A model generated the notes under the pieces. The model saw only the letters and a list, made by a program, of their open reading frames with translations. It did no database searches and was not told where the DNA came from. DNA of 64,000 bases, counting the filler, from an uncultured Methanoregulaceae archaeon (GTDB lineage Archaea > Halobacteriota > Methanomicrobia > Methanomicrobiales > Methanospirillaceae): the NCBI GenBank assembly GCA_964530035.1. It is 8 parts of 8 records of this genome, joined end to end, with 100 filler letters (N's around TTAATTAATTAA, not from the genome) between each part and the next. Parts side by side here need not be neighbours in the genome. Positions count along the whole stretch, not along the records: positions 61,378 to 64,000 come from CAZGXZ010000219.1; 7 more parts are not named here. One strand, 5' to 3'. The position numbers were made by a program, and so were the translations under genes. Position 1 is the stretch's first letter. Every line of letters starts with the position of its first letter. Shown piece after piece: positions 52,742-64,000 of this stretch.

Positions 52742-52742
52742 C

Positions 52743-54074
52743 CACCTGGCAGGCCGGGGTCACTTCCTGTTCCTTGTCCCCCTCGTCGCCCTTGCGGTCC
52801 AGAAGTTTGAAAGGTTTACCGAGCGGTACGGAAAAATCGCGCCTGTCTCCATCATCATAGGAAAGGAACGCCTGCGTATCCCGGGAAACCGTCCCAGGGA
52901 AGGCAGGAATCCACGTGCCTCGATTATTGTCGGGACCTATGAAGGAGTCGACCATCTCATGAGAGTCGGGTCCTCCCTTCCTCCCATCGGGACGGTCGTG
53001 ATCGACGAAGTACAGATGCTCGAGGACCCTGAACGAGGGCACCGGATAGACGGACTCATCGCCAGGCTCCGCTATCTTTACCCTGAAGCGCAGTTCCTGT
53101 ACCTTTCTGCAACCATCGGGCTCCCGAAGACCCTTGCCAAAAAACTCGACTGTCAGCTGGTCAGCTGGGAGGACCGGCCGGTCAGTCTCGAACGATACCT
53201 CCTGTTCATGGAACGCAAGCAGAAGATCCCTACCATCCGGAAGCTGGTGAGGGAGGAGTATGCGAAGGTGTCGGAAAAAGGGTTCCATGGTCAGACTATC
53301 GTATTCACCCACTCCCGGGCCCGCTGCCATGTCATTGCGGAAGCTCTCGGCGATGGGACCGCCGCGTATCATGCAGGGCTTACTTCCGATGAGAGAAGGG
53401 GTATAGAGGAGAGGTTTGCCGGCGGAAAAATCATGGCTGTGATTACAACGGCAGCGCTGGGGGCCGGTGTTGACTTTCCCGCCTCGCAGGTGGTTTTCGA
53501 CTCGCTTGCCATGGGGATATCCTGGCTCTCCGTCGCAGAGTTCAACCAGATGGCGGGGCGCGCCGGCCGGCCTGATTTTCATGACCTTGGAAAGGTAATC
53601 ATCCTGGCCGAGCCCGGGGCGTCCTACATGAGGGGTTCTTCCCTGACCGAGGACGAGGTCGCGCTTCAGCTCCTGAAGGGCGACATGGGTGAAGTGGCAC
53701 CCGTCCACAACCTCGAACAGTCATCAGAGGAGTTCGTGGCAAATGCGGTGGTCGCAAAAGGAAGTGCCGCCGGTATTGATACCATCGAGAGGACGATGGT
53801 CGGAGAATCAGAGCCTGTAAAGGATATTCTTAAACAAAAAGGCCTTATTTCTGAGCAGAAAGGAAAAATTTTCATCACCGACATGGCCCGGGTGATGAGC
53901 GAGCACTTCATCGGTATCGAGCGATTGGAACTGATTATCCAGCTTATCAGGGAAAAAGAGAGTCCTGTCGCGATAGTTGCCGAACTTGACTGTATCACCG
54001 AGGAGGAGTCAGAGAAGGACCGGCCAAAGAGAAAAGACCACGAAAAACGCCGGGCTCACCGGAGAATGCCGTGA
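52743..54074 (+). CDS. Archaeal SF2 DEAD/DEAH-box helicase (5'-partial)
   Basis: FLVPLVALA, GTYEG, DEVQ, LSAT, YHAGL, QMAGRAGRP. Confidence 0.9.
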   Translation, partial: HLAGRGHFLFLVPLVALAVQKFERFTERYGKIAPVSIIIGKERLRIPGNRPREGRNPRASIIVGTYEGVDHLMRVGSSLPPIGTVVIDEVQMLEDPERGHRIDGLIARLRYLYPEAQFLYLSATIGLPKTLAKKLDCQLVSWEDRPVSLERYLLFMERKQKIPTIRKLVREEYAKVSEKGFHGQTIVFTHSRARCHVIAEALGDGTAAYHAGLTSDERRGIEERFAGGKIMAVITTAALGAGVDFPASQVVFDSLAMGISWLSVAEFNQMAGRAGRPDFHDLGKVIILAEPGASYMRGSSLTEDEVALQLLKGDMGEVAPVHNLEQSSEEFVANAVVAKGSAAGIDTIERTMVGESEPVKDILKQKGLISEQKGKIFITDMARVMSEHFIGIERLELIIQLIREKESPVAIVAELDCITEEESEKDRPKRKDHEKRRAHRRMP

Positions 54075-54151
54075 ATTGCCAGTTCCGGTAAGTATTAATA
54101 CGACTTTCACTTTCATTACACTATTAGGATTAACATCCGGGGTGATCCCCG

Positions 54152-54736
54152 ATGGGATGTCTCAAAGTTCATTGCACGTGGGTTATAATCGTCTGTCTTC
54201 TGGCAGGGATGGTTGTTCTTATACCGTCCGTTACGGCTGCCACGAATTATAGTGGCACAAAAGCATTCATTTTCCACCAGGGCGTGTTGGTGCCCACCAC
54301 TCCGAGCAGCAGTGCCGGCTCTTATATCAAAATAGGGACTGCTGTAGAGTCCGACACAGGGCAACAGGAACAGGGAGGTACCCTTGAAGTCAGCCAGGGT
54401 GGTATCAGGGGGGCCGCATCATCCGGAACTTCAACGAATACCACGAAAACCCAGGGCTATTCAAGGGAGATGATGGGTCTGCAGGTTTCGACATTCGATG
54501 GTTCATCTGGTCCGAAAACACTTGGATTCGCCGAGAATCCTGACGTTTCCTTTACAGACAACCCGGGGCAGGTACAAACGCTTTTTTCAAAAAGCAGTGA
54601 TTTCAAGGCGGCAACACCGGTCCTCCCGAAAAGCGGCGGTATTACTGAGAAAACAACGGTGTTTGGAAAGAAGGTGGCTACAGTGACCAATATCCGGGCT
54701 ACTCCTTCTCTGGATAAAACTCACCTTTTATCCTGA
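54152..54736 (+). CDS. Secreted Ser/Thr/Gly-rich hypothetical protein
   Basis: Signal-peptide-like N-terminus. Confidence 0.55.
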   Translation: MGCLKVHCTWVIIVCLLAGMVVLIPSVTAATNYSGTKAFIFHQGVLVPTTPSSSAGSYIKIGTAVESDTGQQEQGGTLEVSQGGIRGAASSGTSTNTTKTQGYSREMMGLQVSTFDGSSGPKTLGFAENPDVSFTDNPGQVQTLFSKSSDFKAATPVLPKSGGITEKTTVFGKKVATVTNIRATPSLDKTHLLS

Positions 54737-55561
54737 TACCAGGCAGACCCACCTGTCGTACACGGGGTCCCTGTCATTTTCCCACACGCGGGTTTTTTTC
54801 CCTGTTTCGGCAACCTTTCTGGCAACAAATTCTGCTTCTTTTTGTGTACCCGTGCTGATGAGGCCCTTTTCTGAAAGACGGGCCATGCTTGTGATAATGG
54901 GCCCCCAGATATCTTCGTTAAAGGATGTAATCTCTCCAAACATCAGCCCAACAGAAAAGTGGACAGGTTTCACGTAGGATGAGGCTATACGTGCATCGAT
55001 GCACAGGGTAGATGCCGGTTCGAGTCTTCGCGATGCAAAACCCCGTGAGAGCAGACCCGGGTCATTGTCGAGCGAGACCGGGGAAAAACCAAGGTTCCGG
55101 AGAGCAGCGGATGCAATTCCCGAGCCACAGCAGAAATCCAGGCATATCCCCTGCTCCAGGCTGTCACATACCTCCCTCAGCAGCTCGAGAACGCTTCTCG
55201 CCCGTTCAGGATTACAATCTTCGATAGACGGAGGAACATTTTCACGTATAAACGAGGAAAAGTACTCCCTTACCGCCGCCTCCCAGACCTCACGCGACTC
55301 CTGCCAGATCTCCCCGGACAACGATTCGAAACGCTCTATGACTGTGATATCGGGCCTTCTCAGGTGGAACGAGGCAGCGGTCCAGGCATTCATGCATCCG
55401 ATGGCAAGTGCAAGGGGGTTGTCTTCTTCATCGACGAGCAATCGCCCTTCCTCTCCTGCCAACCCGGTAATCACCTGGTTGTAACACATATCTGGCATCG
55501 AGGCATAATCCGGTTCGACAAAGGTCAGGGAGGGGACACCAAGAAGTTCATGAGCCTGCAT
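54728..55561 (-). CDS. Class I SAM-dependent methyltransferase-like protein
   Basis: LDFCCGSG motif I and SLDND; start placed at MQAHELLG. Confidence 0.7.
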   Translation of the reverse strand: MQAHELLGVPSLTFVEPDYASMPDMCYNQVITGLAGEEGRLLVDEEDNPLALAIGCMNAWTAASFHLRRPDITVIERFESLSGEIWQESREVWEAAVREYFSSFIRENVPPSIEDCNPERARSVLELLREVCDSLEQGICLDFCCGSGIASAALRNLGFSPVSLDNDPGLLSRGFASRRLEPASTLCIDARIASSYVKPVHFSVGLMFGEITSFNEDIWGPIITSMARLSEKGLISTGTQKEAEFVARKVAETGKKTRVWENDRDPVYDRWVCLVSG

Positions 55562-55571
55562 GGTCTCACCA

Positions 55572-56807
55572 TCAGGCCCCGAATTTTTTCGAGCGGTTGA
55601 CAAGGTCAAGGGCAATAGGGAGGAGAGAAGGGCCGCTGATCCTTGAGAGCCCGCCGGCAGCACAATCGACCTCGTCAAAGCGGGTGATCCTGTCCCTCCT
55701 CACACCTTCCCCGTGGATGAGCACGGGGACCGGGTCAGCACTGTGGTCCTTCACCGAACAGGGGGTACTATGGTCTCCGCATACGACCAGGATGGTGTCG
55801 TCAAGATCGCAAAGCCCTGCGAGCGCCGTATCGATGTGGTGTATAAAGTCGCGTTTCTGCTCCGGTTTCCCATCGTGGCCTGACTCGTCCGCGCCCTTGA
55901 TGTTCATCAGCACGAAGGGATAGGTCTCAAGGGCATTGGTCGCTGCCACGACCTTACCGTCAAGATTGGTGTTGACCGAGCCGGTAATGCCCCGGACCGG
56001 TATTGAGTCGAGGCCAACGACCCGCCCGATCCCGGTAATCAGGGAGGCTGCCGAGATTACGGCGCCCTTCATCCCGTACCGCTTATCAAACGGCTCCAGC
56101 CTTCCCATCTCACCTGCACCCCTGACAAGAATGATATTCGCCTGCTTTTCCCCGGCAGCAGCGCGTTCCAGGTTGAGTGGGTGAGTACTCAGGATCTCTC
56201 CGGACTGCCGTATGAACTCGGCCAGAGCACGAGAGGTCTTCATGGCTCCCGGACCTTCCTCCAATGGTCTGATCTCCAGGGGGGCTTTCCCCTCTGACTT
56301 CGGATCGTTCGATGATACACAGTGGGACAGCCCCTCTCCCCTGAAGGCAAGAGCGGCCCGGTGGCCGGCTCCTGACCTGAAGCTGACCTCTATCCCATAC
56401 TCTGAGAGATCGACACCTTTCTCAACAGCGTTGGACAACACCGCCGTGTCATGGATCCTTCCAGCACGACGATCAACAATCTTTCCTGATCCGTCAAGGG
56501 TAGCATAATTGGCTCGGAAACCGATCATCCCTGGCTCCATGTGGATCCCGGACCCCTCCGCTTCCAGAGGTCCCCTCCCGGTATAGTACGTATATGGGTC
56601 ATATCCAAGGAGGCTCAAATGTGCTGTATCCGAACCCGGCCTGATCCCGGGCGCAATGGTGTCCATAATCCCGCATACTCCGGTTGTTGCCAGCCTGTCG
56701 AGAACGGGTGTTTCAGCGGCCTGCAGGGGTGTCATGTCACCAAGTGAGGGGCAGGGCCGGTCGCCTATACCATCCAGTACGAGGAAAAGGATCCGATGAG
56801 CGGTCAT
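55572..56807 (-). CDS. apgM: 2,3-bisphosphoglycerate-independent phosphoglycerate mutase
   Basis: LDGIGDRP, PGSDTAHL, YTGRGPLEA, DESGHDG, GDHSTP...HS.DPVP. Confidence 0.94.
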   Translation of the reverse strand: MTAHRILFLVLDGIGDRPCPSLGDMTPLQAAETPVLDRLATTGVCGIMDTIAPGIRPGSDTAHLSLLGYDPYTYYTGRGPLEAEGSGIHMEPGMIGFRANYATLDGSGKIVDRRAGRIHDTAVLSNAVEKGVDLSEYGIEVSFRSGAGHRAALAFRGEGLSHCVSSNDPKSEGKAPLEIRPLEEGPGAMKTSRALAEFIRQSGEILSTHPLNLERAAAGEKQANIILVRGAGEMGRLEPFDKRYGMKGAVISAASLITGIGRVVGLDSIPVRGITGSVNTNLDGKVVAATNALETYPFVLMNIKGADESGHDGKPEQKRDFIHHIDTALAGLCDLDDTILVVCGDHSTPCSVKDHSADPVPVLIHGEGVRRDRITRFDEVDCAAGGLSRISGPSLLPIALDLVNRSKKFGA

Positions 56808-56994
56808 GAGAACAGGTATGGGCTTTACCTCCTTATTCCTGACGACGTGTGTCGTCATTTCTGCGCCCGTTCTTATGAGGGGCGTAACGGGGGTTATTCT
56901 GGGTCTCCTGTCCACGCTCTTTCCCATGGATGGGCAGGACTGTCCGGGGTATGAGAGAAGTCGGTACTGCGGATAAGTGCAATAAAAAAGAGTT

Positions 56995-57618
56995 TCAGGC
57001 AGCTGCAGCAGCAGCGGCGGCAGCGAGTGCCGGCCCTGTGACCTCGACCTTCGACTTGGTGATCTCAATCCTTCTTACCGGATAGATCATCTTGGCCTGC
57101 TTGAAGAGCTCCTTTGTGATGTCCCCGCTTAAAACACCGTTTAACAGGACATTGACATCTCCTGCCGGAAGCTGGGCAAGGATTGATCCGGTTACCAGTT
57201 TCCGGATTGCATGTTCCTGGCTTTCCTCTGCCCGTGACAGGGTAAAGACCGTTACCGTGACCATTACCCGCCTGCCATCCCGGGTTACATAGGGGATGTG
57301 GCAGTCGATCCGTGAAGTCCGGCGCTTGACCATGGAACGGAGATAGTCTCGGGATATCTCGTGACCTACGAACTCAGTGTATGCTGCGTCTCCGGCAACA
57401 CTGTTGATGCGCAGTCGTATCTTGACATGCTGCTTTCCGTAATCATTCACGACCTCCCCGAGGGTCGTCCCCATGACCCTGCCGACCACCTGATCCGGGG
57501 AGGCGGCAATCGTATCGCCAAGGTAGGTCTTCCCGAGCATGTCGGGGGCGTATACCTTGTACCAGCTCTTGGCCTTCCAGCCTTCTACTCGTCTTCCGAT
57601 CTGTTTTTTCTTTGCCAT
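56995..57618 (-). CDS. rps3ae: 30S ribosomal protein S3Ae (eS1)
   Basis: WKAKSWY, DYLRSMVKRRTSRID, IYPVRRIEITKS. Confidence 0.96.
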   Translation of the reverse strand: MAKKKQIGRRVEGWKAKSWYKVYAPDMLGKTYLGDTIAASPDQVVGRVMGTTLGEVVNDYGKQHVKIRLRINSVAGDAAYTEFVGHEISRDYLRSMVKRRTSRIDCHIPYVTRDGRRVMVTVTVFTLSRAEESQEHAIRKLVTGSILAQLPAGDVNVLLNGVLSGDITKELFKQAKMIYPVRRIEITKSKVEVTGPALAAAAAAAAA

Positions 57619-57643
57619 ATGATTTCACATCCTTTTGTAATGT

Positions 57644-59182
57644 TCAGAGGAACCTGAACACCTCGTTCTGCTCTCCTACGAGATTTGCAACTGATTTTGG
57701 CCAGTTCTCACGGTCAAGCCCCTTCTGGGCGAGGAAAGCGGCGGTCCACCGTTCGAGCCCTATCCCCGAACACCCCGACCAGCAGGTCTCCCCGCTCTGG
57801 ATCTTTACGTTGAACCCCGTGGGATACTTGTCACCATTTATACTGACGTTCTGGAACTCCAACCAGTTTCCGTTGTACGGGAGGATTGCTTCGTAATCGG
57901 TTGTGCCAATCCGTGCGCCACACCCGCACTCCCCTCCGGTCCCGGTCGTGTCAACCAGGCCTTCCTGGGCCATAAACCACGGTGTGACCCGGGCACAACG
58001 CCATTCCAGTTCGAGGAGGTCCTCGAAGACGCGGGTATACTTCTCGTGGAGCCGGTCGGCGATGTCGGTAGTCTGTTCCGGAGTACCCAGCCAGAGGACC
58101 TCTATCCGATGAAACTCATCAACCCGTTCAATCCCGTGAATACCCCCGCTTTCGTACCTATGGGACGTCCCGCTCCTGTCAAAGACCCTGGCGGGCAGGC
58201 AGTCGTTTGCAAGGGTCTCCCCCTGGAGGAATGGCCAGAATGACGGACACTGGGCATAACAGAGTCCTCCGATCGGGCCGTCAATCTTTTCCCGAATCAG
58301 GTCCACGGGCACCTCGCCCGTCACCTTGAAATAATCTCCGACCTCCTCCCAGTACTCCGGGTCCCTTGTCTTGGGGGTACAGACGTAGTAGATCTCCGGG
58401 TACACTCCTTTCGCATGTCCCGACTTTTTCCAGACCTCCCAGGGGACCAGTTTCGGGAAGATCATCTCGGTGAACCCGAGCGGACGGATGATCTCGTCCA
58501 TGACGATCTGTTCAAATGCCCGAAAGAGTCTGACTGACTGGGGACCATGGATCCACTGGCCGCGGGAGAGTGCGTGCTTTATCCAGTTCCGCTTCAGCAT
58601 CTCTTCTGTCGGGTCGCCTGAGAAATGGCGTGGTTTAGCCGCACTTTCAAAGACAAGGTCCCAGTGCTCTCCCTTGCCGCCGTACTGGCGTGCGACGATT
58701 TTTTCTTCGAGGAGCCTGATAATCCTGTCAGGAATCCGGTTTTCCAGGTCCACAGCCGTTACGGCCATGTCAAGGGTGACACAACCGGGCTCTACCCGTG
58801 AACCTGCGATAAAGGGTAACCTCGGTACTACCAGCCCCTCCGGGACATCACCCAGCAACTGGACCGAGAACCCTGAAATGGTAATGTTTCTGACTCCGAG
58901 CCGGGCCTTTCCAAGCGCCTGCGCAAGCTGTTTTCTAAGCCTGAACAGGGCGTCATGTGCCCGGGTATAGGGACCACTCAGGATCAGGACCGATATCGTG
59001 TTCTCCTTCACACTGTAATCTTTCACAAAGCCGATTTCATCCGGAGAAGCCCCCTTTGGGGCACCTTTTCTGAAATGAACGGTATTGCATTCATTGACTA
59101 CTGATGCCAGGGACTCGACCGCATCCGGGGAAAGCACCCCGCTCATCACGATGTCAGCTGTCAGTCTGAATCGAGGCTGCAT
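57644..59182 (-). CDS. serS: Methanogen-type (type 2, Zn-dependent) seryl-tRNA synthetase
   Basis: YAQCP, FDRSG.SHRYESGG.HGIERVDEFHRIE, LEFQN, WSGCSGIGLERW. Confidence 0.93.
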   Translation of the reverse strand: MQPRFRLTADIVMSGVLSPDAVESLASVVNECNTVHFRKGAPKGASPDEIGFVKDYSVKENTISVLILSGPYTRAHDALFRLRKQLAQALGKARLGVRNITISGFSVQLLGDVPEGLVVPRLPFIAGSRVEPGCVTLDMAVTAVDLENRIPDRIIRLLEEKIVARQYGGKGEHWDLVFESAAKPRHFSGDPTEEMLKRNWIKHALSRGQWIHGPQSVRLFRAFEQIVMDEIIRPLGFTEMIFPKLVPWEVWKKSGHAKGVYPEIYYVCTPKTRDPEYWEEVGDYFKVTGEVPVDLIREKIDGPIGGLCYAQCPSFWPFLQGETLANDCLPARVFDRSGTSHRYESGGIHGIERVDEFHRIEVLWLGTPEQTTDIADRLHEKYTRVFEDLLELEWRCARVTPWFMAQEGLVDTTGTGGECGCGARIGTTDYEAILPYNGNWLEFQNVSINGDKYPTGFNVKIQSGETCWSGCSGIGLERWTAAFLAQKGLDRENWPKSVANLVGEQNEVFRFL

Positions 59183-59385
59183 AGATCCTCCGCTACTGTG
59201 AGGTTGGTAAGGTAATCGTCCACCGAGGCAATGACCGAACGAATCCTGTCCGAAGTGATGGTCGTTACGACCTGGTCTCCATCGGCACGGGTTTTCATCG
59301 ACATGAGGTTATCAGGAGAGAGTGCACCGGCAACGGTTGACGGATCGCGGTGCCTGGTGATAATACGGCCTGTTATCCTGGTCAT
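59161..59385 (-). CDS. pcc1: KEOPS complex subunit Pcc1
   Basis: ALSPDN...RSVIASVDDYL.NL; lies in the rps15-DHH-pcc1 run. Confidence 0.85.
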   Translation of the reverse strand: MTRITGRIITRHRDPSTVAGALSPDNLMSMKTRADGDQVVTTITSDRIRSVIASVDDYLTNLTVAEDLCSLDSD

Positions 59386-60593
59386 ACCGTGACTGCCCCC
59401 CTGAACGCCTCGGCAAATCCATTCAGGCGGTCCGTCGGGATCGTGGCCCCCGCACGTGTCCGGTGTCCTCCACCATACCCCCCTGCCTCCCGTCCAAGTT
59501 TATCCATAAGTTCTCCAAGGTCTGCTGATGACTCAACGGGTGAACGGACTGATATTCGGCATGAACCATCACGACAGGCATATACCAGGATAGGTGCATC
59601 AGGTTTCCATGTTCCTGCTATTGCATCAGCAACATCAGATGCAACAGCCGGGTTTTCAACAGGAAATACCCCCTCTTCGCGCTCTTTAAGTGAAATGAGC
59701 GCCTGGACGACGTCTGTGCGGTGTTTCCGTGCCACTTCCCAGCCGGACTCGACTGATCCCATCTCCCTGAGACCTATCGTGAGGGCAAGTCCTCCATGCC
59801 CGGTCTTTCCACAGGCGTCCATTACCATGGCAAGGGAGGAGGCATCGGGTATTACCTCTCTCCCGAGACGGTAGGTATCACCGAAAAGGGTGAACATCGC
59901 CCGGGGGTGAAGTGAAGTGGCGTTTTCAAGGACAATAAGCGAGAGAAGGGTTGTAATGTCCTCTCCGTCAGAGCCCTGGGATTTTCCAAGGAGATCCTCG
60001 ATGGCCGGCTGGTTACCGCTCACGCCTGAAAGGAAGGGGTTTGTCGCGAGATACAGCCGTTCCAGGATATCACGCCCGGGAAGGAGCATGCCCCTGCCCG
60101 GCTCGATGACTCCGAGCGCCATGGCCTCGTGTATGATATCCCTGTTCGGACCGGCGAGGTGCTGGCCATCACCGATAATACCGCACAGCACAAGTCCTGC
60201 AAGGTCCCGGTTGTCTCCGAGGCCCTGTGCAACGAGGAACGCTGTCCCGGCTGCAGACAGCTCATGCTCCCCGTCAATCCCGAACAACCTGGGATTGACA
60301 TGGTTCACACCCTTGAAGTCGGGCTTATGGTGATCGATGACCATTACCCTTTCCGGCATGTCCGGGAGCGAGGCTCCCAGGTCTGTCAGGAGGATCGGAT
60401 CATCGGTCTTCAGGTCTTCGGTGGTGACGCGCTGCCGCACCCGTACCCGGAACCTGACCCCTGCACGGAACATTGCAGTGGCCATGATGGCCGCCGCGGC
60501 TATGCCGTCGGCATCGTGATGTGTATAAACTTCAACGAATCCGCATCGGGTGATCTCCCGGGCAAGGTCGGTACACGCGTCAGTGATTCCCAT
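59382..60593 (-). CDS. DHH/RecJ-like phosphoesterase
   Basis: HHDADGI, IDHH, VNP..FGIDG, GGGH..RAGA. Confidence 0.9.
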   Translation of the reverse strand: MGITDACTDLAREITRCGFVEVYTHHDADGIAAAAIMATAMFRAGVRFRVRVRQRVTTEDLKTDDPILLTDLGASLPDMPERVMVIDHHKPDFKGVNHVNPRLFGIDGEHELSAAGTAFLVAQGLGDNRDLAGLVLCGIIGDGQHLAGPNRDIIHEAMALGVIEPGRGMLLPGRDILERLYLATNPFLSGVSGNQPAIEDLLGKSQGSDGEDITTLLSLIVLENATSLHPRAMFTLFGDTYRLGREVIPDASSLAMVMDACGKTGHGGLALTIGLREMGSVESGWEVARKHRTDVVQALISLKEREEGVFPVENPAVASDVADAIAGTWKPDAPILVYACRDGSCRISVRSPVESSADLGELMDKLGREAGGYGGGHRTRAGATIPTDRLNGFAEAFRGAVTV

Positions 60594-60596
60594 GGA

Positions 60597-61055
60597 TTAC
60601 CTTGACAGCAGGATTTCAGCGGTCTCCGGTTTGTACGTCCAGCCCTTAGCCAGCCTGCCGCTCTTCACATAGTATTTGACGAGCCGTCGTACCTTTGACT
60701 CGGTCAGGTTGAGCTGCCGTTTGTTATGGACGTCCTTGGTGTTCTCGGCAAGGTGCCTGCGGAGCCGCAGCGCCTTTATGATCAGGTTTCTCAGGTCCTC
60801 GGGGATTTCGGCTATAATGCCTTTTTCCTTGAGAATCTCGTCTATCCGCTTTCCTGTAGCGAGCTTGACACTCGGGACTCCGTACTTGTCACGGAGTATA
60901 AGTCCTATCTTGGCGCTGGGTACGCCTTCCTTTCTCAGGTCGAGGATGACCTTTTCAATCGCAGCGGTATCAGTGTTCGACCATTCCGGCGCTTCCTTTC
61001 GAAACGGCCTGATGGATGCCGATAGACCCCGCGTCCGCGCATGTATTCGTGCCAT
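60597..61055 (-). CDS. rps15: 30S ribosomal protein S15 (uS15)
   Basis: MARIHAR.RG.S.S.RP, IPEDL.NLI, LTESKVRRLVKYY. Confidence 0.97.
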   Translation of the reverse strand: MARIHARTRGLSASIRPFRKEAPEWSNTDTAAIEKVILDLRKEGVPSAKIGLILRDKYGVPSVKLATGKRIDEILKEKGIIAEIPEDLRNLIIKALRLRRHLAENTKDVHNKRQLNLTESKVRRLVKYYVKSGRLAKGWTYKPETAEILLSR

Positions 61056-61082
61056 GGTTGCAATTTCACCTCCCAAAAGCAG

Positions 61083-61195
61083 GTAAATCCGAAAAAGAGC
61101 CCTATGTCTGGCTCTCCGTAATCCCATGAGCCCTGGGCGGGCAGTGCCGTCATGGACGGACACGTCGGATTTACAGCTGCCACACTCGTCCTGCT
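61083..61195 (-). ncRNA. Structured 5' leader of rps15 (S15-Methanomicrobia r-leader-like)
   Basis: GTAAATCCGA (61083-92) pairs with TCGGATTTAC (61165-74) and encloses hairpins GAGCC/GGCTC, GCCC/GGGC and CCGTC/GACGG. Confidence 0.72.
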
Positions 61196-61277
61196 AGCGG
61201 AGAGTGCTCAATATTAATAGATGAGAGCATTCTTAAGGGTATGCCCGTCAGTCCGGTTGCCCATACCGGTTGATCAG

Positions 61278-61377: not shown

Positions 61378-61717
61378 GGCGGGTGACTGCACTGGACACG
61401 AGGCAGGAGAATGTTACGATGGATGCGAAGAGCGGGCCCCAGTTTACGTAGGTTCCGTAGGGAAAGAACGTCATCGGGTCGTAGGTCGGGTAAGCGGGAA
61501 ACCTGGGGAGCATGAGCTCGACCTGCCGCAGGAGGTAGAGGGAATCGCCTGTTTCGACATGACCCAGGAGCTCTCCCTGGACGGTGAAGACTGGCCAGAT
61601 CCTTAAAATCACAGCAAGGCACCCGAATAGGAAAAGAAACAGCACGGTCAGGGATGACCTGTGCTCGGCTAAGGAAGGGAGTGCCTTGAAAATGTGTCCT
61701 TCTGCCGGATTTCTCAT
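61378..61717 (-). CDS. aglB: Oligosaccharyltransferase AglB/STT3-like, N-terminus (3'-partial)
   Basis: TM ending LR, then D.LY.LRQVE...FP.Y..YDPMT.FP.G....WGPLF. Confidence 0.8.
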
Positions 61718-61868
61718 TCCACGATACTAGGTGGCGTTGCAGCCACTTCAAGGTGCGTATATCGTGGATTGGGAGGGACATGTGCGGGGAGGGGATAGTC
61801 GAAACCCTCTCGCAGTCAAGATAATGAGGTCCGCCCCGAAAGGTACCTGAAACACTGACGTGTGAACT

Positions 61869-62162
61869 ATGTCTGAACTATCGCTCTGCTCCACGGTTTC
61901 AGCGGTCAAGGACCAGGTCTCCTGCGACCTTGCCGGTGAAGCGGTCATCCTCTCCCTGAAAAACGGGGTATACTATACCCTGAACCCAATGGGTGCAAGG
62001 ATATGGTCCCTTGTCCAGGCGCCCACACCTGCGTCCACCGTCCGTGATACCATCCTTGCCGAGTACGACGTTGATGCCGGCCGGTGCGAAACCGAACTGC
62101 TCTCTCTTTTAAAGGACCTTCACCGGGAAGGACTGATCGAGGTTGAAAACCCAAACATTTAA
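61869..62162 (+). CDS. PqqD-family RiPP recognition element (lasso B1)
   Basis: DLAGEAVIL....GVYY.LN.MGARIW.L...EYDVD...C......L..L...GLI. Confidence 0.92.
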   Translation: MSELSLCSTVSAVKDQVSCDLAGEAVILSLKNGVYYTLNPMGARIWSLVQAPTPASTVRDTILAEYDVDAGRCETELLSLLKDLHREGLIEVENPNI

Positions 62163-62586
62163 CCGTTTTTTAAACCTTTCCACGGAGGAGCAGGTTCTTC
62201 TTCTCCGTGCGGTACTGCTCCTCGGGCTGGTCAGGCTCGGGCTGTGGCTCCTTCCCCTCAGGGCGCTCCAGCATGCCCTTGGAAGCCTTTTCGCAAGGGG
62301 GAAGACACCAGGAAAACCGCAGCCTCCCGTTGAGCGGATCTGTTGGGCCGTGCGGCTGGCAGGAAGCATCGTGCCCCGGTCGACCTGCCTTGTCAAGGCC
62401 CTGGCAGCCCAGGCCCTGCTGGCTTCCGGAGGCCAGGCCTCAAGCCTGTGTATAGGGGTAGCAAAGGACGGGGACTCTTCCCTGGGGGCTCATGCCTGGG
62501 TGGAAATAGATGGGGTGGTCATCATTGGTGAGACGGAGCCAGGGCGTTACACCCGCCTCATGACTATGCCGGGAGAGCCGGAATGA
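62143..62586 (+). CDS. Lasso peptide B2 leader peptidase (transglutaminase-like)
   Basis: TCLVKALA, LCIGV and AHAWVEIDG give a Cys-His-Asp triad. Confidence 0.9.
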   Translation: MKTQTFNRFLNLSTEEQVLLLRAVLLLGLVRLGLWLLPLRALQHALGSLFARGKTPGKPQPPVERICWAVRLAGSIVPRSTCLVKALAAQALLASGGQASSLCIGVAKDGDSSLGAHAWVEIDGVVIIGETEPGRYTRLMTMPGEPE

Positions 62587-64000
62587 GTGGCATCGGAGGA
62601 GTATTCAACCTTGACGGTGCACCTGTGCCACGTGAAACGCTCGGATTGGTCGCCGCTGCCATCAGTCACCGGGGCCCTGACGGGCTTGAGAGCTGGACGG
62701 ACGCACGGGCCGGCCTCGTACATAGTCATTTCTGGACGACACCCGAGGACCTTGGTAAGAAACAGCCCCTGTCAGACGGGGCATGCTGGATAACCGCGGA
62801 TGCGAGGATTGACAACCGCGACGAGATCCTGCCGGTGCTGGAACACCCGTGTTCGTCATCAGTCCCAAGCGATGCCGGGCTCATCCTTGCGGCATACCGG
62901 AAGTGGGGCGTGGAGAGTCCGAAACACCTCGTTGGTGACTTTGCCTTTGCCATCTGGGACCCGCAGGCCCAACGGCTTTTCTGTGCCCGCGATCCAGTCG
63001 GCATCAGGCCATTCCAGTACGCCCGTGCCGGCAACACCCTTGTCTTTGCTTCAACGACGGGTGCGGTCGTCGCGGCATTTTCCTCCCGTCCCGTTCCAAA
63101 CCTGCCATTCATGTCGGACCTCCTTGCAGGAAGGTATGAACGCTGGATATCGGAAACCGCGTACAAGGATGTCTTCCGCCTTCCCCCGGCCCACTCTCTC
63201 ATCGCTGACACGAACGGAATTTCCATATCCCGGTACTGGACCTTCGGGCAGGGGCAGAAGGAACCCTGTACGACGAAGGAGGAGTACATCACCCGTTTCA
63301 GGGATGTATTCAGGGAGGCGGTCCGTTGCCGGCTGAGGTCAGCAGGGCCTGTCGGCATGACGGTGAGCGGGGGTCTTGACTCGTCTTCGATTGCCTGTAT
63401 GATAAAACGGCTTATAGAAGACGGGATGGTTAAGGATCTGCCGGTGCGGATGTATTCATCCGTCTATGACCATACACCGTGTGCCGATGAACGCGTGTTC
63501 CTCGACGAACTCCTTGGCGCATGTCCCGGGTTCCCGGCGACCCTGATCCCCTCGGATGACCTGTGGGGGATGAAGGAGTTTGCAGATGACCACGGGTTCC
63601 CCCTTGATGAGCCCGAGACAGACGTGATACGGGCCCTCCTCCTGGCACAACTCCAGGCTGCACAGGGACACGGGTGCCGGGTCTTTGTCAGCGGCCACGG
63701 GGGGGACCAGGTCATGAACACGGATGCGTATTATTTTCCCGACGTCCTGAACGATGTCGGGCTCTATGACCTGATCAGGGAACTCCGGCACTTCTATGTC
63801 TATCGCCGGTCTGCCCCCGTGTTTTTCCTTAGTGCCTTCATTGCACCGCATATTCCAGCAATGTTGAAAAAAAGGTTATCCACCCTTTTTTACGACCCGA
63901 GTGCCGGGGGGCTCCTCACCCCGTTGTGCACGAAGGTGATTCCGGGAGCGGATCCTGAGGAGATCCCCAGCGGCCTTGGAGGAAACGGCTCTGGCAGGAT
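62583..64000 (+). CDS. Lasso cyclase (asparagine-synthetase-like), 3'-partial; not in the ORF track
   Basis: Hand translation: MSGIGG..HRGPDG..ADARIDNRDE..GDFAFAIWD..ARDPVGIRP..VSGGLDSSSIA..SGHGGDQ; ATGA overlap with B2. Confidence 0.9.
   Translation, partial: MSGIGGVFNLDGAPVPRETLGLVAAAISHRGPDGLESWTDARAGLVHSHFWTTPEDLGKKQPLSDGACWITADARIDNRDEILPVLEHPCSSSVPSDAGLILAAYRKWGVESPKHLVGDFAFAIWDPQAQRLFCARDPVGIRPFQYARAGNTLVFASTTGAVVAAFSSRPVPNLPFMSDLLAGRYERWISETAYKDVFRLPPAHSLIADTNGISISRYWTFGQGQKEPCTTKEEYITRFRDVFREAVRCRLRSAGPVGMTVSGGLDSSSIACMIKRLIEDGMVKDLPVRMYSSVYDHTPCADERVFLDELLGACPGFPATLIPSDDLWGMKEFADDHGFPLDEPETDVIRALLLAQLQAAQGHGCRVFVSGHGGDQVMNTDAYYFPDVLNDVGLYDLIRELRHFYVYRRSAPVFFLSAFIAPHIPAMLKKRLSTLFYDPSAGGLLTPLCTKVIPGADPEEIPSGLGGNGSGR

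Follow-up and report, generated by a model that had tools for sequence, protein, structure and literature searches.

A predicted lasso peptide cluster with a phosphoribosyltransferase-like fusion protein in a Methanospirillaceae methanogen

Genes, contiguity and precursors of the cluster

The window, meaning the whole 64,000-nucleotide stretch of DNA analysed here, comes from the genome of an uncultured archaeon of the Methanospirillaceae and consists of separate contigs joined by N spacers. Positions 61378-64000 are the entire contig C219 (2,623 bp), which carries three overlapping genes on the plus strand: B1 (61869..62162), for a 97-aa stand-alone recognition element (RRE) of pathways for peptides that ribosomes make and that are modified after translation (RiPPs), with the PqqD fold; B2 (62143..62586), for a 147-aa lasso leader peptidase with a TTG start; and C (62583..>64000), for the first 472 of the 635 residues of a lasso cyclase. 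We conclude with good confidence that C219 is the 5' half of a complete lasso peptide cluster in a methanogen. The cluster has the order B1-B2-C-A1-A2-PRTase/RRE-kinase-ABC, where PRTase stands for phosphoribosyltransferase, is likely from bacteria, and has as its predicted product a Gly1-Asp8 lariat peptide, which probably receives further decoration before export. Below, G000 is the source genome, with C219, C180, C209, C7 and C113 among its contigs; G001 is a relative of the same genus (77% complete) and G267 one of the same family and another genus (99% complete). L-numbers denote fetched loci, X-numbers sequencing runs, and P0121 a database protein.

C has no stop codon in the window because C219 ends there. 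The remainder of the cluster lies on the minus strand of C180: C, residues 479-635 (4617-4144); A1, a degenerate precursor (4025-3891); A2, an intact 60-aa precursor (3799-3617); a 386-aa PRTase-RRE fusion (3519-2359); a 328-aa HprK-like kinase (2369-1383); and an ABC exporter (1257-1) that ends on C209 (3088-2447, minus strand), where unrelated genes follow. These genes were found by searching G000 with the proteins of the G001 locus, in which one contig carries B1, B2, a 635-aa C, two short open reading frames (ORFs), a protein of 388 aa and the beginning of the kinase. By blastn, the window end has no direct overlap with any other contig; G001, P0121 and run X7 supplied the link. P0121 (635 aa, in other assemblies) is identical to C over all 472 window residues and then continues through six residues into the translation of C180, and a 41,296-nt contig of run X7 spans both contigs 16 nt apart (places 24247 and 24264); X7 may be the run from which this DNA derives. 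A reading of the window from sequence alone (the sequence-only reading) had described the three overlapping genes as a stand-alone PqqD/RRE, a B2 protease and an asparagine-synthetase-like protein running off the end; the family matches agree with the description. A frameshift further on would have spoken against that reading, but C reads through at full length. The whole cluster covers about 7 kb in the standard code, and G267 has the identical gene order on a 658-kb contig.

Profile matches place the three proteins in the lasso machinery. B1, 95% identical in G001, matches Pfam PqqD (PF05402) at 61.7 bits, cut-off 23.4. B2 matches lasso_biosyn_B2 (NF033537) at 100.3 bits against a cut-off of 33, and a Protein Data Bank (PDB) sequence search with it returned no match. 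The intact Cys-His-Asp triad first ascribed to B2 holds for two of its members: all 73 aligned B2 proteins (that of the window included) have Cys82 and His117, but there is no invariant Asp column, position 123 being Gln in 42, Asp in 11 and Glu in 10, and the best-kept acid is Glu121 (64/73). B2 thus appears to hold an intact Cys-His pair, with an uncertain third residue. The 472 window residues of C score 358 bits with the lasso cyclase model NF033535 and 170 with the AsnB model TIGR01536. C begins Met-Ser-Gly-Ile, with Ser2 where AsnB has Cys, and keeps the ATP motif SGGLDSS, both as read at the outset. The combination of RRE, B2 and AsnB-like cyclase had been named there as lasso machinery, with which the best matches to NF033537 and NF033535 and the position of the cyclase in trees (below) agree.

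The precursor had been expected outside the window, and both A1 and A2 do follow directly after the cyclase on C180, as do their counterparts in G001 and G267. The leader of A2 is of the YxxPxL type (NF033521, 28.5 bits against a cut-off of 19), position -2 is Thr, and the core of 38 residues has Gly1, Asp8 and a 30-residue tail; the calculated monoisotopic mass of the cyclised core (-18 Da) is 3997.78, and that of the short, 21-residue A1 core of G267 is 2050.93. Of 33 matches in a genome-wide motif scan, five lay in short frames, and the sole credible one is on C180. A2 fits the proposed pattern of a YxxPxL leader, Thr-2 and an Asp or Glu at positions 7-9. The three genomes hold six precursors, in which Gly1, Gly4, Asp8, Gly10, Ala12, Ser14 and an aromatic residue (Phe/Tyr) at position 15 are invariant. 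Thr-2 is present in five of the six, and four pass the leader cut-off. Phe/Tyr15 is a plausible plug of the predicted threaded fold. As a side observation, an N-x-S/T sequon lies inside or across the ring in the A2 cores of G000 and G001 and is absent from the other four cores, probably by chance.

Characterised lasso pathways suggest how these proteins would act (PMC10664482, PMC4289311; these and the papers cited below are used from excerpts, unless a main text or supplement is named). B1 would bind the YxxPxL leader of A2, and B2 would cut after Thr-Leu. C would adenylate Asp8 with ATP and join it to the amine of Gly1, giving the macrolactam with a loss of 18 Da, and the ABC exporter would secrete the product. 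By analogy with those pathways, the RRE-B2-C-ABC steps are very probably the encoded function of the cluster. The kinase, which has the motifs HAS and LTDD and is 22-49% identical to kinases from lasso loci of bacteria, may phosphorylate an internal Ser, most likely Ser14, because none of the six precursors ends in Ser and Ser14 is invariant in all six. The HprK-like kinase LppK acts on an internal Ser (PMC13381572).

The PRTase-RRE fusion

The protein encoded after A2 has a C-terminal PqqD domain (41.5 bits), and its remainder matches no family over cut-off; Pfam PRTase-CE reaches 14.7-20.3 bits against a cut-off of 27. An AlphaFold2 model built from 105 homologs has a pLDDT of 93.8. Residues 90-291 of the model match type I phosphoribosyltransferases (Foldseek E 3e-5; best VIA match at Z 12.4, rmsd 4.4, 142 aligned), and residues 297-384 match the lasso B1 protein TbiB1 (Z 11.8, rmsd 2.4, 88 aligned). 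A PDB sequence search with the fusion matched only the RRE part and no solved PRTase. Homologs number 256 at E <= 0.001 among 4,975 candidates; those with names belong to cyanobacteria and to one Desulfobacteraceae bacterium, and for several a PF00156 match is precomputed.

Binding motifs for phosphoribosyl pyrophosphate (PRPP) consist of a hydrophobic run, two acids and small residues. Two stretches are near-invariant across the 105 homologs: Pro-Arg-Gly-Gly (128-131), which we take to be the pyrophosphate loop, and Val-Val-Val-Asp-Asp-Cys-x-x-[ST]-Gly-x-Arg, whose Asp163-Asp164 motif is presumably the PRPP loop. Gly130, Gly131, Asp163, Asp164 and Gly169 are found in 105 of 105 homologs, Pro128 and Arg129 in 104, and a further W-N-E-P-D stretch is also near-invariant. 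To judge from the model, the fusion is a PRTase-fold and RRE protein with apparently intact PRPP-type motifs, and a new element of the cluster. Three DNA runs differ from C180 at 2927-2983 (L102), within the PRTase gene, by nine letters and a 6-nt in-frame insertion, which is either a strain variant or a local assembly error.

Among 228 family genomes, the three that have B2 are also the three that have the fusion. Neither a sample of 400 other genomes of the phylum nor plasmids yielded a copy; of 301 genomes related to that of a Brasilonema, 11 carry one. A lasso cyclase lies nearby in 16 of 20 distinct fusion loci (L106 dropped as a duplicate of L040), a count in which many rows are close kin and seven of the 16 were reached via cyclase or B2 and are not independent. 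Among the 13 loci fetched by the fusion itself, nine have an adjacent lasso cyclase, and the other four are contigs of 1.6-8.3 kb. Seven cyanobacterial loci (L025, L109, L124, L125, L129, L130 and L131) have precursors beside the fusion with long tails, a Gly-Ser-x-Asp/Asn motif and two late cysteines; to our knowledge these peptides are uncharacterised.

Two readings of this protein are about as likely as each other. In the first, the PRTase domain would be guided by its fused RRE to the precursor that still carries its leader, and 5-phosphoribose would pass from PRPP to the core or to phospho-Ser. BtrL offers a parallel, likened from its description and not by homology: it uses PRPP to phosphoribosylate neamine, a non-nucleobase acceptor (PMC13707489). 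Transfer of phosphoribose from PRPP to the core is the activity we favour for the fusion, tentatively and at rather less than even confidence. The fuller proposal, in which the lasso peptide carries ribose-5-phosphate or ribose derived from PRPP through an RRE-guided PRTase, with the kinase acting on the internal Ser14, is possible at a level we would place slightly lower. In the second reading the lasso core is real, but the fusion is a PyrR-like sensor-regulator of nucleotides or PRPP, or a scaffold for the kinase, and modifies no peptide, which we regard as an open contender short of an even chance. PRTase folds also serve as regulators, and PyrR scores like the enzymes in the fold comparison (Z 11.5 vs 12.4). 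The fusion is also optional, as it is present in only five of 79 loci fetched by the cyclase, and the core Gly-Ser motif occurs in cyanobacterial precursors without a fusion as well. A regulator or scaffold fits less well with the RRE, since RREs in RiPP pathways deliver precursors to modifying enzymes (PMC10664482), or with the conservation of both PRPP-type motifs and the W-N-E-P-D stretch. The fusion is also directly followed by a related kinase in the archaea and in the bacterial loci L022, L104 and L105 (44-49% identity, vs 22-37% for other cluster kinases).

Integrity, cyclase grouping and origin

Several results count against a working lasso pathway of the kind proposed. The best NCBIfam match of B1, lasso_PqqD_Bac (NF033536), is just under its cut-off (75.8 vs 80), and full-length C, though NF033535 is its best match (419.6 bits; AsnB model 211.5), is under the cut-off of 525. 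The kinase scores weakly (PF07475, 15.7; TIGR04352, 31.3 bits against a cut-off of 200) and has a variant P-loop, STNKGGKST. A1 has no ATG, GTG or TTG before the leader, Phe for the leader Tyr, and 15.8 bits against the cut-off of 19; in the second precursor of G267, position -2 is Ile and the score again falls short of that cut-off. The metatranscriptome run X19 gives, at a depth of about 2, three contigs of single-read length (151 nt), two of them on B1/B2 and the third on the 3' end of A2, which is not evidence of expression; run X15 is probably DNA. Both cyclase trees described below are quick searches without bootstrap or AU test, and in the first a long stem (1.59) leads to the archaeal pair.

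In another reading the cluster is a horizontal acquisition in decay, its expression lost. The degenerate letters of A1 are identical in three DNA runs, the cluster is rare (three of 228 genomes, with B2 in two of 301 order genomes), and RNA support is slight. Yet B1, B2, C, A2, the fusion, the kinase and the ABC gene are all open and full length in G000 and G267, and order and motifs are retained across two genera whose cyclases are 56% identical. Decay is on this evidence improbable.

The flank of the cluster bears on the identity of C. At 61378..61717, on the minus strand, lies the 5' end of aglB, for an STT3-type oligosaccharyltransferase, archaeal AglB (TIGR04154 match, E 1.2e-16). It stands back-to-back with the start of the lasso operon in three of three genomes (window 61378-61717; L021:1-468; L101:6831-9437), and is a landmark tying C219 to an archaeon and outside the lasso pathway. 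The intergenic stretch between the divergent aglB and B1 (61718..61868) is the presumed promoter region, and promoter and terminator scans, including a motif scan of its G001 ortholog, gave results at chance level. A precursor in this stretch was ruled out: it holds no precursor ORF, and no lasso leader appears in any of the six frames.

With aglB beside C in all three genomes, and with Asn_synthase and GATase Pfam domains in C, it could be supposed that C is a glutamine-dependent asparagine synthetase or a glycan amidotransferase belonging with aglB, and that the RRE and B2 are unrelated neighbours. We consider this very improbable. C has Ser2 in place of Cys, its gene overlaps that of B2, and lasso precursors come after it. 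A tree of 107 proteins, including the G001 and G267 cyclases (quick IQ-TREE, SH-aLRT only), places these two among Ser-start proteins of bacterial lasso loci (86 rows), and this side is split with an SH-aLRT of 100 from a Cys-type side (21 rows) that contains all 18 AsnB-like proteins of same-order genomes. Within about 1.5 kb of these 18, no gene for B1, B2, a kinase or an ABC protein is present. The grouping with glutamine-dependent AsnB that would have spoken against the sequence-only reading was thus not found; by sequence, C groups with the lasso cyclases of bacteria and apart from the AsnB of methanogens.

Its family makes the host a methanogen, and G000 has an mcrA fragment at the end of one of its contigs (E 1.6e-40); the organism was detected in digester and sludge metagenomes (14 DNA runs, six studies). 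That C219 is bacterial DNA mis-binned into an archaeal genome is the least probable alternative, scarcely to be entertained: in its favour are a length of just 2.6 kb and the bacterial identity of the closest cyclase relatives that have names, but the contig carries an archaeal-type aglB, the enzyme genes have a GC content of 0.55-0.61 against 0.56 for the genome, and the notion is contradicted by synteny in G001 and on the 658-kb contig of the 99%-complete G267, where the operon again lies beside a divergent aglB.

A second tree (38 rows, with 20 of 77 closer cyclase matches added, several of the nearest rows without names) nests the Methanospirillaceae cyclases in a group (supports 99, 99, 96 and 93) that includes named Chloroflexota, Thermoanaerobaculia and Limnocylindrales. 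The cyclases of Methanobacterium and of another Euryarchaeota member fall in a separate group with cyanobacteria. These sequence relationships suggest that the cluster likely came from bacteria, independently of those in Methanobacterium. The lasso loci of two Methanobacterium and one Euryarchaeota metagenome-assembled genome (L042:7087-17308, L066:5298-10847 and L090:8001-11472) have a kinase and no PRTase match.

Known systems and neighbouring cassettes

The cluster resembles the canonical split-B lasso pathway, including fetched clusters of Cyanobacteriota, Chloroflexota and Acidobacteriota, in its B1-B2-C order, Ser-start cyclase, YxxPxL leader, Thr-2, Gly1/Asp8 ring, HprK-like kinase and ABC exporter. 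It differs in the archaeal host, the PRTase-RRE fusion and the 30-residue tail of A2. The paeninodin and pseudomycoidin clusters of Bacillota likewise have a discrete RRE, B2, cyclase, HprK-like kinase and exporter (PMC7533575, PMC13381572). According to the excerpts of these papers, their C-terminal Ser is phosphorylated and the leader is WxxP, whereas here the leader is YxxP and none of the six precursors ends in Ser. Pseudomycoidin also has a nucleotidyltransferase, and none lies within the archaeal lasso cluster. The nucleotidyltransferase family PF14907 is present only on C7 of G000 and at G267:546120, in radical S-adenosylmethionine (SAM) cassettes, and none was found in the 77%-complete G001.

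Archaeal lasso clusters of the same kind have been predicted, with the Methanobacterium cyclases elsewhere in the tree. The LassoPred/RODEO set of 4,749 sequences holds 80 rows labelled Euryarchaeota (PMC12214591, Supplementary file 3; labels as given there, 32 of the 80 inspected), and Tietz et al. 2017, as cited in PMC7533575, named Euryarchaeota as a source of lasso peptides that is underexplored. An archaeal B1-B2-C was to be expected because archaeal lasso clusters are already predicted. B1-B2-C alone is another member of these, and the novelty of the whole cluster is the PRTase-RRE fusion. The start of the A2 core has no match in seven supplementary files of PMC12214591.

The fusion shares its fold and PRPP-type loops with type I phosphoribosyltransferases (HGXPRT, APRT, OPRT, PyrR), and differs from them in being fused to an RRE inside a peptide cluster. 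Other RiPP systems touch on single parts of the proposal. The LPP clusters have a kinase that acts on an internal Ser, and are not lasso clusters with a PRTase; the word 'phosphoribosyl' is absent from the main text of PMC13381572. Minviopeptin is reported to be a RiPP with ADP-ribose (PMC12912966), and is not a lasso peptide with a PRTase. Ribosylation is not among the secondary lasso modifications listed in the excerpt of the 2023 paper PMC10664482. The literature searched (mostly titles and abstract starts, with few subscription papers) describes no archaeal lasso product and no PRTase in a lasso pathway. The sequence-only reading had likewise known of mined archaeal clusters and of no characterised product.

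An intact and compact cluster of this kind is a ready test case for lasso peptide production by methanogens, and its product, if the prediction is true, would be the first archaeal lasso product characterised. Transfer of phosphoribose to the peptide by the PRTase-RRE protein, if it takes place, would be a new kind of RiPP modification and would make the protein a tool enzyme directed by leaders. The modification would then be common to several hundred uncharacterised proteins of cyanobacteria, other bacteria and these methanogens. If it does not transfer phosphoribose, the locus adds another archaeal member to a class that is already well known.

Contig C113 of the window (52742-61277) holds a helicase fragment, a phosphoglycerate mutase, ribosomal proteins S3Ae and S15, a methanogen-type seryl-tRNA synthetase and a DHH protein, which we take to be ordinary archaeal housekeeping genes unlinked to the lasso contig. 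On C7 (20733-29514; L103:3734-12503, minus strand), the body of an aglB gene reaches the contig end and overlaps the aglB fragment of C219 by 148 nt at 82% identity, so that the two contigs may be neighbours or the genes paralogs. Downstream of this aglB is a second RiPP-like cassette, with a signal-peptidase-like gene, three radical SAM genes, a PqqD gene and a Cys-rich precursor of 57-60 aa with a WxxPxL leader, facing a PF14907 nucleotidyltransferase. In G267 (C1, ~541300-547200; L101:17300-20000, L132:1-4200), a SynChlorMet-like cassette follows directly after the lasso ABC gene, with ScmF (491.9 bits, above its cut-off), another radical SAM gene and a nucleotidyltransferase; a tandem pair of Cys/Gly-rich, precursor-like ORFs whose leader is YxxPxL is there as well. 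The aglB neighbourhood in G000 and G267 looks like a gathering place for RiPP cassettes.

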